Source of the DNA: a virus
Length of the DNA stretch: 64,000 nucleotides
Reading direction: 5' to 3' (one strand)
IMG/VR virus record: IMGVR_UViG_3300022924_000001
Coordinates: 1-64,000 of that record
The position numbers and the translations under genes are program-made. Within the stretch, counting starts at the first letter, position 1. Each line of letters starts with the position of its first letter. This document shows positions 49,981 to 64,000 of this stretch, in pieces. Under the pieces are notes generated by a model that saw nothing but the letters and a program-made list of their open reading frames with translations, had not been told where the DNA came from and searched no databases.

Positions 49981-50090
49981 TAAACAGAAAACAACGTATC
50001 CCACTTTCAATCGGTTGGTTTGTTACCTGCTTAAAAATAGTATTTAATAGAAAATTAATTGTAACTTTAATAGGTTATAAATAAAAATAT

Positions 50091-61464: not shown

Positions 61465-62388
61465 ATGTCTACATATTACTACGATTGCGAATTTTTAGAA
61501 GGTAAACAGAAAGAGAGCTTTCCAATATCTCTATTTAGAAAAGAAACAAAACCTGGTATTGATTTAATCAGTATTGGACTGATTGCCGAAGACAACGAGG
61601 AGTATTATGCTATTTCAAAAGACTTTAATTTGACAGAAGCTTGGAATAGGTTTGAATGGAAAAAACAGTGGGTGCCGCTTGATAAAAATAATCAAGTTTG
61701 CAAAGACGTAAGAGTCTATTGGATCCGTGAAAATGTACTACTACCCATTTTTTATCAGTTAGCTCTTGACGATTTTCATTTAACCCACTTTAAAGACCAG
61801 TGGCTTGTTGATGGGAAAGAAGTGACTTTGGAAGTTTTTAAGTCTAACGCTAAATGGTCTTCAGATTTTAAGTGGTTCAAAAAACTTATTAAAAAATATG
61901 GCAAGACTAATGACCAAATCGCGGCGGAGATAAAAGAATTTATTTATAAAAAAGAAGATGTGTTATATAATCATGAAAGATGTTCTATGGAAGACATTGG
62001 AAGCGTAAAGAGCGATATTAATCTTTATGGTTACTATTCAGCCTATGACCACGTTGTATTCTGTTGGCTCTTTGGAAAAATGATGAATTTGCCTAATGGT
62101 TTCCCGATGTACACTAGAGACTTGAAGCAGATACTTGATGAAATAACTCTTGATTTACCGAAAGAGCTGATAAGAAAGCTTCAATGTAGTATATGTAATC
62201 ATAATTCTTTAGAGTATCTAGAAAACACTGGAGAAGCTTTTGAGTTAGAATTCAGGCTTAAAAGGATCAAAAAACATGCAGATTACCCAAAACAAGAGAA
62301 TGAGCATAACTCTTTATCCGATGCTAGGTGGAATAAAAAGCTTCATGAATTCTTAAAATCCCTACAGATCCAAATTTCCGGCGAATAA
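61465..62388 (+). CDS. DEDDh 3'-5' exo(ribo)nuclease, Rv2179c-like
   Basis: YYYDCEFLE (D, E), ISIGLIAEDNEEYYAISKDFN, YGYYSAYDHVVFCWLFG (D), HNSLSDARWN (H, D). Confidence 0.7.
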   Translation: MSTYYYDCEFLEGKQKESFPISLFRKETKPGIDLISIGLIAEDNEEYYAISKDFNLTEAWNRFEWKKQWVPLDKNNQVCKDVRVYWIRENVLLPIFYQLALDDFHLTHFKDQWLVDGKEVTLEVFKSNAKWSSDFKWFKKLIKKYGKTNDQIAAEIKEFIYKKEDVLYNHERCSMEDIGSVKSDINLYGYYSAYDHVVFCWLFGKMMNLPNGFPMYTRDLKQILDEITLDLPKELIRKLQCSICNHNSLEYLENTGEAFELEFRLKRIKKHADYPKQENEHNSLSDARWNKKLHEFLKSLQIQISGE

Positions 62389-62411
62389 AAAATACTATAA
62401 AAATAATTAAG

Positions 62412-62447
62412 AACCCTTGTATTAACTTACAGGGGTTTGTTCTTTAT
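62412..62447 (+). terminator. terminator-like hairpin ending the early operon
   Basis: AACCCTTGT-8 nt-ACAGGGGTT (one G.U) followed by the T-rich TGTTCTTTAT. Confidence 0.5.
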
Positions 62448-62470
62448 AAGAAGTAATGTAAGAACAAAAA

Positions 62471-62610
62471 GTAAACAGATTTGTTTACATTAATATAAAT
62501 AAGTAAACACGTATATTGATGGTGTATAGGGGGTGGCTTGATAATAACCACTATAGGTAAGGGCTTTATTTTTAGTCTGAGACTTGGGGGATAATAAAAA
62601 AATTGTAAAC
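62471..62610. repeat. GTAAACA iteron-like repeats
   Basis: GTAAACA at 62471-77 and 62503-09, an inverted TGTTTAC at 62482-88, and GTAAAC at 62605-10. Confidence 0.6.
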
Positions 62611-62624
62611 GTTATTGACACATA

Positions 62625-62703
62625 ACCCACCCTATATACAAACCCCAACCAAAAAGGAAATTTTTACCTAACCCCCGCCTAACCAAAATCAAAACCCCAA
62701 ACC
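62625..62703 (+). repeat. G-poor A+C tract with AACCCC-type repeats
   Basis: AAACCCCAACCAAAAA, TAACCCCCGCCTAACCAAAA and AAAACCCCAAACCG. It is mirrored by G-runs at 62521-62590. Confidence 0.7.
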
Positions 62704-62986
62704 GTTTTTGACCGATTCCTATTTTTAAAATCCAAAATTTAATTTATTTTTTAACATAAATAATTTGCGTATGTCAAATATTGTTTCTAATCAACGTTCT
62801 CGAACTTTTGATAGTCTCATACCTTACTACCTCTTTACGTGTCTTAAAAACGCTTATAATCAATATTACACTATATTTGACGTTTACCTCACAATCCAAT
62901 TAGTTTAATACGAGGAACGCACGCGCATATACAACAATCTTTTTAAATAAAAAAATTTATTTTCACTATTTTTATTAAAATGTTGA

Positions 62987-62994
62987 CATATATT
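62987..62994 (+). promoter_or_regulatory. -7 box TATATTTG
   Basis: Matches TAnnTTTG, 45 nt before the ATG at 63040. A second TATATTTG lies at 62872-62879. Confidence 0.45.
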
Positions 62995-63039
62995 TGTAGT
63001 GTTGAAAGCAACTAAGCTACCAACTTAAATCTAAACATT

Positions 63040-63174
63040 ATGGCACTTTCAAAATTACAAAATGATAAGCTAGAATCACTTTACAATGACTACAACAACG
63101 GAGTAATTACATGTAACGAATACTTAGAGAAACAAACCTTAGTTTTAGGGTCTAAAATACTACAAAGCTCTTAA
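63040..63174 (+). CDS. hypothetical small protein (44 aa)
   Basis: Read by hand: MALSKLQNDKLESLYNDYNNGVITCNEYLEKQTLVLGSKILQSS. Confidence 0.35.
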   Translation: MALSKLQNDKLESLYNDYNNGVITCNEYLEKQTLVLGSKILQSS

Positions 63175-63175
63175 A

Positions 63176-63309
63176 CCTGCGAAATACCCTTTGGGTATCG
63201 ATACCTAGCCATTAAAGGTATCCTGATGAGTTTGGCAAGTGTGACACCACTATAACTGTCTGCTTAGCTTGCTAGTATGGATTAATCGCCGAATCAAGCC
63301 ACGAAATAC
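63176..63309 (+). ncRNA. hammerhead ribozyme candidate (predicted cleavage between C63199 and G63200)
   Basis: C-GAAA-UACCC-UUU-GGGUA-UC | GAUACC-11 nt loop-GGUAUC-CUGAUGA-G. All invariant core nucleotides are present and stems I and III are perfect. Stem II is weak locally or formed with GCCAC-GAAA at 63298-63306. Confidence 0.6.
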
Positions 63310-63563
63310 AAATAGTATAGTAGTGTTTTAATACGTGTTTAAAAACATTAGTGTTAGGCTTTCAATATGGAAATATTGGGTTAGTAAATAAGCAATTCCT
63401 GCGCGTTGGTTACGCTTGTAGAATGGATGAAACATAAATAACCTAACTAAATAGATTCGTGGTTAACGTTGGGCGCAACTCCCTAAAATATAAACGGTAT
63501 TAGTAAGTACTATTAATAAGGTTCGTAACCTTTACCGTTTGCTAACTATTAAAATATAATATT

Positions 63564-63743
63564 ATGACTATTCAAAAATTCTTTAAGGTTTTAAGCTATT
63601 ATCTTATACTTATTAATATCGGTATGTTGGTGTATGCTGTAATAAAATTAGATATAAAATTTATTTGTTTGTTTTCTTGTTTTATTGCGGTGTTTATTTT
63701 TATTAACTGGTTGTGGTCTGAACCCCTAAAATTTAAATTATGA
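63564..63743 (+). CDS. small membrane protein (59 aa)
   Basis: Read by hand: MTIQKFFKVLSYYLILINIGMLVYAVIKLDIKFICLFSCFIAVFIFINWLWSEPLKFKL, with two TM helices. Confidence 0.45.
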   Translation: MTIQKFFKVLSYYLILINIGMLVYAVIKLDIKFICLFSCFIAVFIFINWLWSEPLKFKL

Positions 63744-63898
63744 AAATACAAAGAATAGTAGTTGAAAATTTCAGCGAACTAGATTACATTGTAGTTGCTG
63801 TTTATAAAAACGGGGAGTTTGACCGCAGAGAAAAAATACTTAAATCGAATATTGTAAAACAATTCCCATTACATAGGGGTAAAATAATTAAACTTTAA
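63740..63898 (+). CDS. hypothetical small protein (52 aa)
   Basis: Read by hand: MKIQRIVVENFSELDYIVVAVYKNGEFDRREKILKSNIVKQFPLHRGKIIKL. ATGA overlap with the previous ORF. Confidence 0.4.
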   Translation: MKIQRIVVENFSELDYIVVAVYKNGEFDRREKILKSNIVKQFPLHRGKIIKL

Positions 63899-63903
63899 AT
63901 AAT

Positions 63904-64000
63904 ATGGATTTAAAAATTGAATTATATCTCTATGAGGGTTCACTCGATTGGGATAACAGTTTAGTAAGAGAAGACCGTTACATTATTGTAGGCAGTGAGG
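63904..64000 (+). CDS. hypothetical protein, 5' fragment (runs off window end)
   Basis: ATG at 63904 (MDLKIELYLYEGSLDWDNSLVREDRYIIVGSE...), open to the window end. Confidence 0.35.
   Translation, partial: MDLKIELYLYEGSLDWDNSLVREDRYIIVGSE

Follow-up and report, generated by a model that had tools for sequence, protein, structure and literature searches.

The record is a complete phage genome of 133,478 bp with terminal repeats and a G+C content of 34.8%, and the window analyzed here (64,000 nucleotides) is its first 64 kb. The largest ORF-poor gap of the genome extends from 62389 to 63563 and is preceded by an exonuclease-like gene (61465–62388), which is followed by a terminator (62411–62438). 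Within the gap lies a promoter block (Table 1), from which transcription would start rightward at ~63003–63006. This block is single-copy in the 133-kb genome and is 84% identical over 89 nt to its counterpart in the related phage L005, where the neighboring proteins are just ~46% identical; it is also seen in a four-phage alignment, and its profile is found upstream of leaders in L025, L031, L063 and L023 and, more weakly, in L064, L014 and L066. Conservation reaches as far as ~90 nt upstream of the –7 box and is suggestive of regulator binding sites. With the promoter motif as the basis, the host is best read as being of the Flavobacteria/Bacteroidota type. A first-pass annotation had described the downstream part of the gap as ORF-free RNA packed with hairpins, linked to a hammerhead ribozyme and ending in a tRNA-like three-way junction. 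The features that were found at the locus are collected in Table 1.

Table 1. Features of the promoter, the leader and the adjoining genes (window positions; P0–P3, paired elements)
Feature	Position	Strand	Remarks
Promoter block	62915–63002	+	Bacteroidota-type –7 box TAnnTTTG at 62989–62996
44-aa gene	63040–63174	+	Within the segment absent from the closest relative, L031
Hammerhead-like motif, type II topology	63179–63236	+	Complete within the same segment
Hammerhead-like GAAA and stem III hairpin	63181–63184; 63184–63189 / 63193–63198		Stem III, 6 bp
Hammerhead-like C17	63199		Predicted cleavage between 63199 and 63200
Hammerhead-like stem I hairpin and CUGAUGA	63200–63205 / 63217–63222; 63223–63229		Stem I, 6 bp
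Hammerhead-like stem II	63230–63231 with 63179–63180		2 bp
Hammerhead-like pseudoknot	63208–63211 with 63233–63236		Loop I with tail, 4 bp
Leader block A	63261–63387	+	Conserved only with L031; contains the first two hairpins of the first-pass annotation
Variable leader segment	63388–63467	+	Includes the D-arm-like hairpin 63395–63424; unrelated in L031, with a 42-nt gap over 63388–63429
Hairpin P0	63468–63479	+	4 bp, GGCG loop
A-rich single-stranded linker	63480–63491	+	Each of the three sequence types has an A-rich linker ahead of its closing stem
Three-way junction	63492–63540	+	P1 63492–63499 / 63533–63540; P2 63501–63504 / 63509–63512
Junction P3	63518–63523 / 63527–63532	+	Abuts P1
Translation initiation region	63541–63563	+	A/U-rich, unstructured; identical in L031
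First downstream gene	63564–63743	+	59-aa hydrophobic protein

The locus is shared by L031, a metagenome contig that was found by a metagenome scan with the exonuclease-like protein, and the similarity between the two is mosaic. The region 62226–63008 matches at 93.6%, the following 252 nt of the window (63009–63260) correspond to only 24 nt in L031, 63261–63387 differ at 2 of 127 positions, 63388–63491 are swapped for a shorter, unrelated sequence, and 63492–63571 carry a single change. Of the exonuclease-like gene, L031 retains just the 3′-terminal 53 codons (L031:1299-1458; window 62226–62388), at 100% identity and behind unrelated genes, and therefore the mosaic boundary lies within this gene, at ~62226. 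Upstream of the promoter, a non-coding island with G-run and C-run stretches (62389–62900) is ~95% identical in L031 and has thus likewise been retained between the two phages. Since the window and L031 are identical elsewhere too, with zero differences over the 281 nt of 62226–62506, the near-identity of blocks A and B of the leader is weak evidence of selection and may instead reflect recent exchange.

The 252 nt that are missing from L031 include a 44-aa ORF and the entire hammerhead-like motif. The ORF has a homologue, P0004, of 52 aa (56% identical, E 8.7e-4, in a search against 1.8 billion proteins), for which the unrelated phage contig L037 carries an ordinary small gene without an adjoining ribozyme; the 44-aa ORF is a real gene. 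The motif next to it contains the type II core, with CUGAUGA, GAAA, a base other than G at position 17 and stems I and III closed by loops, as well as the stem II and the pseudoknot between loop I and the tail that have been described for this type (PMC3088659). CUGAUGA occurs at 21 sites in the genome, one of which has this context, the chance of which is ~1.3e-4 per site. In prophages, stem II of type II hammerheads often has only two pairs and the pseudoknots have four or more (PMC3088659), and single genes flanked by a type II hammerhead have been reported in such elements (Perreault et al. 2011; PMC3088659). The motif does not reach the Rfam gathering threshold (Hammerhead_3, 17 bits vs 48.5), Hammerhead_II gives no match at E up to 10 either in the whole genome or in a 113-nt search, and RF00008 gives none genome-wide. 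A type III reading by way of the GAAA at 63302–63305, in block A, was set aside, because L031 shares this GAAA while lacking CUGAUGA altogether, and because the type II motif is self-contained in the insert.

The first-pass annotation had tied the hammerhead to the RNA downstream of it. This link is lost in the comparison with L031, which keeps the leader blocks in the absence of both the hammerhead and the 44-aa gene. The ribozyme therefore belongs to the inserted gene cassette, and the RNA downstream can do without it. The same observation bears on the idea that the locus produces a free-standing, trans-acting non-coding RNA with a 5′ end made by the hammerhead and a 3′ end marked by the junction, as might be suggested by the length of the ORF-free transcript, its conserved block A and the hammerhead-like motif upstream; this is very unlikely, given that the blocks occur in L031 without any hammerhead, that no terminator follows the junction, and that the junction goes with the start codon of whichever gene comes next. 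The indel with respect to L031 offers a clean natural case of a small gene travelling with a hammerhead-like motif.

As to coding content, 63175–63563 is indeed ORF-free: the longest frames are 35 aa on the minus strand and 28 aa with a GTG start, both are lost in L031, and a hidden or decayed gene was rejected in view of the lack of coding similarity in tblastx. The helices themselves can be read from the sequence where they had been placed, namely GUUUU/AAAAC (63325–63329 / 63342–63346), a 6-bp hairpin with a GGAA loop (63363–63378), the outer and inner stems of 63395–63424, a 4-bp hairpin at 63468–63479, and an 8-bp closing stem (63492–63499 / 63533–63540) around two hairpins. That the region is packed with them beyond chance did not hold: the fold z-scores against shuffled sequence range from –1.0 to +0.8 (MFE z of –1.0 for the + strand of 63175–63563, +0.08 for 63236–63563, that is without the hammerhead part, +0.09 for block A at 63261–63390 and +0.8 for the L031 homologue of the region), and the – strand of 63175–63563 scores –1.5. 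The stretch folds like shuffled sequence, and hence hairpin density is by itself no evidence. Only the GGAA-loop hairpin taken alone stands out (z –6.7), having been chosen after the fact. At the gathering threshold, Rfam returned nothing relevant in the window and 17 related loci, and at E up to 10 the sole match at the locus was the 17-bit Hammerhead_3. No repeats of the region were found elsewhere in the genome, and mimicry of a CRISPR repeat by the GUUG...CAAC hairpin was rejected, no Rfam repeat matching it.

The segments of the leader that precede the junction differ in how far they are conserved. No relatives of block A beyond L031 were found by blastn against GenBank phages or by exact-pattern scans of IMG/VR and GTDB, and BLAST against five whole related phage records gave nothing. 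The two hairpins of this block are invariant with respect to L031, and thus uninformative, except for the change of A63367 to G in L031, by which one A-U pair in the stem with the GGAA loop becomes G-U and pairing is kept. Both block A substitutions fall in 63367–63384, where they are silent in a 5-codon mini-ORF, one changing the start from AUG to GUG and the other the third base of a Gly codon; these are two events and may be chance. The D-arm-like hairpin at 63395–63424, which had been counted among the structured elements, is deleted in L031 and is therefore dispensable. The sequence substituted in L031 shares 89% identity with the leader of L005 and 80% with the leader of L023. Hairpin P0 alone is weak (–3.2 kcal/mol, z –1.9); it has a counterpart with the same 4-bp stem and a 16–17-nt loop at the corresponding place in L005 and L023, and in L031 one of its pairs is doubly changed, with C-G for U-A. 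In the hairpin before the junction of L005 (L005:8233-8284), L023 (L023:3444-3488) and L031 (L031:2238-2290), the 16–17-nt loop can pair with the downstream linker to give an H-type pseudoknot, which covaries among these three; the window has a tetraloop there.

In this phage, the junction fold coincides with the MFE structure (–10.5 kcal/mol, z –1.5), 18 of 200 shuffles are equally good, and the opposite strand folds equally well. Just one of the 49 positions differs from L031, in the P2 loop, and the window-type junction consequently shows no covariation of its own, this nearly identical sequence being the sole comparison. An exact-pattern scan of IMG/VR gave no match to the junction, and a junction 18-mer gave 16 matches in GTDB genomes vs ~17 expected, which corresponds to chance. 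The hydrophobic protein encoded downstream of the junction is found only in its own 2-member cluster among 5.8 billion proteins.

The finding that L031 carries an L005-like leader segment led to a comparison of the leaders that lie behind the conserved promoter in relatives, namely those of L005, L023, L025 and L014, together with those of four contigs found by pattern (L063, L064, L065 and L066). ORF-free leaders of ~280–440 nt follow the promoter in L031, L005 and L025; the median 5′ UTR in a Flavobacterium is 24 nt (PMC9723704). That the junction is a conserved element with covariation in relatives is supported by these eight phage contigs, besides L031: all compared leaders have a closing stem of 6–8 bp around two hairpins, with A-rich single strands on both sides. 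The sequences fall into three types, (i) the window and L031, (ii) L005 and L023, and (iii) L025, L014 and L063–L066, which differ in closing stem, second hairpin and loops; the eight contigs of types ii and iii have no detectable sequence in common with the leader of this phage. Across the types, P1 has 6–8 bp, P2 has 4 bp, and P3, of 4–6 bp, lies within 0–2 nt of the closing strand. The P2 stem is UAGU/ACUA in 8 of the 9 phages, and in the remaining one, L023, all four pairs are replaced by other standard pairs. The distance from the end of the junction to the first AUG is 23 nt here, 29 nt in L005 and L023, 23–33 nt in type iii, and 23–34 nt across relatives, with intervening stretches that are A-rich in all of them. 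The gene after the junction differs from phage to phage, and thus the element belongs with the promoter and the leader rather than with any particular gene. In L031, the module homologous to L005 abuts a window-type junction at the very place that is taken in L005 by the junction of that phage.

MAFFT failed to align the three types, and the alignment across types was therefore made by hand in a script; both this alignment and a strict descriptor of the junction (architecture plus UAGU/ACUA) were designed after seeing the sequences. In the structure-guided alignment of six sequences of the three types, 96 of 96 pair cells are standard, and the RNAalifold consensus is the junction. For type iii, a plain sequence alignment of the six contigs has 99.3% of cells paired and four pairs changed on both sides, which sit in P3 and in the preceding hairpin; none of 500 shuffles was as good, and controls in which the pairing was slid dropped to 37–60%. 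Between L005 and L023, there are two double changes in P1 and four in P2. Applied to 575 kb on both strands (1.15 Mb), the strict descriptor finds the leader sites and one stray; a loose junction of similar size is found 18–37 nt upstream of 3.9% of the gene starts in these phages. A second leader of this genome (49292–50113) has such a loose match at 50041–50083, which was rejected as an AT-rich promoter region that fails the strict descriptor. A covariance model, R1, built from two type iii sequences finds type iii only and misses the window, L005 and L023 even with filters off, and in L005, L023 and L014 the junction fold lies 3–5 kcal/mol above an alternative MFE fold. It is the recurrence in relatives, and not the fold energy, that places the junction above chance. 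When RNAalifold was run on four type iii leaders, a multi-domain consensus of 55 pairs was obtained, 10 of them with compensatory changes, and structured leaders are thus typical of this phage group.

These data also bear on the view that nothing here is functional, the stretch being a fast-evolving spacer with chance hairpins, the blocks shared with L031 the outcome of recent descent or exchange, and the junction-like folds of the relatives unrelated to the one here. The fold energies no better than those of shuffles, the commonness of loose junctions, the failure of R1 to connect the types and the identical blocks elsewhere in the window/L031 pair are all compatible with this view, but it is unlikely to be correct: three unrelated sequence types have a common position, a common architecture and a common P2 stem sequence, almost nothing but the leader sites is matched by the strict descriptor, covariation within types ii and iii is clear, and in L031 the L005-like module meets the window-type junction at the place of the L005 junction. 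The three-way junction at 63492–63540 thus appears to be real. A role at the DNA level, as a palindromic operator or as a replication origin fired from the promoter, is improbable in the extreme. The junction arms are palindromic, both strands fold equally well in this phage, and the locus comes after replication genes, behind a promoter that is single-copy; in the relatives, however, the G-U pairs of P1 (type ii) and P0 (type iii) would become A-C mismatches if the other strand were folded, which makes the fold specific to the transcribed strand, and the stems covary so that pairing is kept rather than sequence. A replication origin at the locus was also rejected on the cumulative GC skew, which turns at ~48–49 kb and not here.

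The tRNA-like character assigned to the junction in the first-pass annotation was not supported by the checks. ARAGORN reports 0 tRNA genes in the window or the genome, no tRNA match at E≤10 was found in 62300–64000, the only match of RF00005 genome-wide is at 77427–77444, and no CCA follows the closing strand. The T-loop-like loop has U at the A58 position, is outcompeted by a more stable arrangement with a 6-bp stem and a 3-nt loop, and is seen only in this phage and L031, the P3 loops of the relatives, of 3 or 7 nt, being unrelated to it in sequence and length. With the T-loop likeness confined to type i, what is left of tRNA mimicry is shape: P3 is separated from P1 by 0–2 unpaired nt in all types, the two stems together amount to 11–14 bp vs 12 in tRNA, the 4-bp P2 and the 5-bp P3 with a 7-nt loop of type iii have the dimensions of D and T arms, and the T-arm of a tRNA gene of the phage resembles P3 here. 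From this shape it is possible that P1 and P3 are recognized like an acceptor/T-arm minihelix, with RNase P or a similar enzyme cutting the leader from the mRNA, but such processing is considered rather unlikely.

The tRNA gene just mentioned (genome positions 77254–77453, + strand; L036:1327-1526) is of interest in its own right, being interrupted at the anticodon arm by ~137 nt. Its D arm is Leu-like and its T arm perfect; the gene scores 30.3 bits with the Rfam tRNA model vs a threshold of 29, was missed by ARAGORN, and has no intron family match. Permuted tmRNA genes (RF04321) are also present in related phages (L002:42-294 and L065:11507-11726, with 66 and 64 bits, respectively), that of L065 lying directly after a tRNA gene.

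The position of the junction in an operon leader, behind a unique conserved promoter, is reminiscent of putR, and raises the question of whether the nascent hairpin and junction might bind the polymerase or a phage factor and make transcription resistant to termination, as put or nut sites do, with the three types as specificity variants. The strict conservation, within a type, of loops and junction strands around stems that covary is what would be seen for a binding site, and the types are swapped between leaders as cassettes. Such a role in elongation control is, all the same, held to be about as improbable as tRNA-type processing. On the + strand, the ~12 kb downstream contain no predicted intrinsic terminator, which leaves antitermination unsupported; the sequence does not resemble put or nut, and the fixed distance of 23–34 nt to the start codon points instead to translation or to mRNA ends. 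A ligand-binding riboswitch with a three-way junction, of the purine type for example, was rejected too, no Rfam riboswitch matching the locus, and the variation of junction strands and loops between types argues against a small-molecule aptamer.

With somewhat better than even confidence, 63175–63563 is thus interpreted as the untranslated leader of an operon, structured and modular, which ends in a conserved, cis-acting three-way-junction module. Compared with the original proposal of a processed non-coding RNA locus, the non-coding nature of the region, its place downstream of a conserved promoter and the conservation of the terminal junction are retained, and the link to the hammerhead, the D-arm-like hairpin and the likeness to tRNA are given up. 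Transcription would proceed rightward from the conserved promoter at ~62990. In the presumed ancestral state, kept in L031, it would yield a transcript that is ORF-free for ~280 nt before the first small gene; in this phage, 63009–63260 would have replaced the 24 nt of L031, bringing in the 44-aa gene and the type II hammerhead-like motif just after the transcript start. The hammerhead, if active, would sever the mRNA of the inserted gene, and the leader would then have its 5′ end ~60 nt before block A. The last module of the leader would be made up of the small hairpin, the A-rich linker, the 49-nt junction and a 23-nt A/U-rich region on which the ribosome lands. In this arrangement, the junction could act as a compact RNA boundary, which keeps the A-rich initiation region from pairing with the fast-changing leader upstream, and, after processing in the A-rich linker, it could also act as a cap that protects the mature mRNA from decay at its 5′ end.

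On the comparative sequence evidence, the junction is probably a new cis-acting RNA element, and we infer that it may serve as a boundary, a stabilizer or a binding site for a regulator or another factor. A role at the mRNA level fits best, owing to the short, fixed distance to the start codon, the A-rich flanks and a leader much longer than the 24-nt median. A further and more doubtful elaboration, offered only tentatively, is that the long, modular leaders of large Flavobacteria-type phages form a family behind the one conserved promoter, with interchangeable junction cassettes at their ends. These cassettes would be recognized by a phage or host factor and would exist in three specificity types exchanged by recombination, and the inserted gene would have brought along a hammerhead that cuts the transcript and thereby keeps the leader working. 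If this were true, the role of the factor would be antitermination, translational control or tRNA-type processing, and the hammerhead insert would be nature's equivalent of the ribozyme insulators that are built into synthetic circuits.

Bacteroidota and their phages have unusual promoters and start sites without a Shine-Dalgarno sequence, and to our knowledge almost no cis-acting RNA elements of Bacteroidota phages have been reported. The motif is absent from Rfam release 15, and no description of it was found in the literature. It is of a kind that is already known, that of the cis-acting leader structures of phage mRNAs, and its distribution is narrow, with ~ten metagenomic phage contigs so far. 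A fold that is kept at a fixed distance from the start codon behind a promoter better preserved than the neighboring proteins, and that tolerates full replacement of its sequence, would provide a handle on how these phages control or protect their mRNAs.

Several elements of the locus can be compared with known systems. The hammerhead-like motif shares with type II hammerheads (PMC3088659) the complete core, the closed stems I and III, the open stem II of 2 bp, the 4-bp pseudoknot and the location beside a single small gene in a phage transcript; unlike them, it falls below the Rfam thresholds and is present in one genome only, outside the conserved leader, and its self-cleavage is a prediction. 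Among leader RNAs, the closest likeness is to the put RNAs (putL and putR) of HK022 and, loosely, to the lambdoid nut sites, which are also small, cis-acting structured RNAs behind a phage promoter, with type-specific sequences on a common architecture. The putR site, ~70 nt in length, lies ~270 nt from the transcript start and has two stem-loops (PMC9378689). The two stem-loops of put are long and are not enclosed by a closing stem as the hairpins of the junction are, and no sequence similarity connects them with the junction, which, unlike put, keeps a short and constant distance to a start codon, with no terminators predicted downstream, and in a phage whose host appears to be of the Bacteroidota type, with a different polymerase and sigma factor.

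The resemblance to the tRNA minihelices that are cut by RNase P lies in the closing stem, which is continued directly by a hairpin to a total of 11–14 bp, and in the second, 4-bp hairpin at the place of the D arm; in this phage, moreover, the loop begins with UUCG. The junction differs from tRNA in having neither an anticodon arm nor CCA, in the U that stands for A58, in loops that vary among relatives and in the negative outcome of the detectors. Finally, in the early mRNAs of the phages T7 and SP82, 5′ stabilizers and RNase III sites lie ahead of a start codon, on the downstream side of the promoter or of the preceding cistron. These structures define and protect the mRNA ends, and they are long irregular hairpins that are cut by RNase III. 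The element described here is, by contrast, a three-way junction flanked by A-rich single strands, in which any cleavage is hypothetical; what it has in common with the T7 and SP82 elements is that it is structured and occupies this kind of location.
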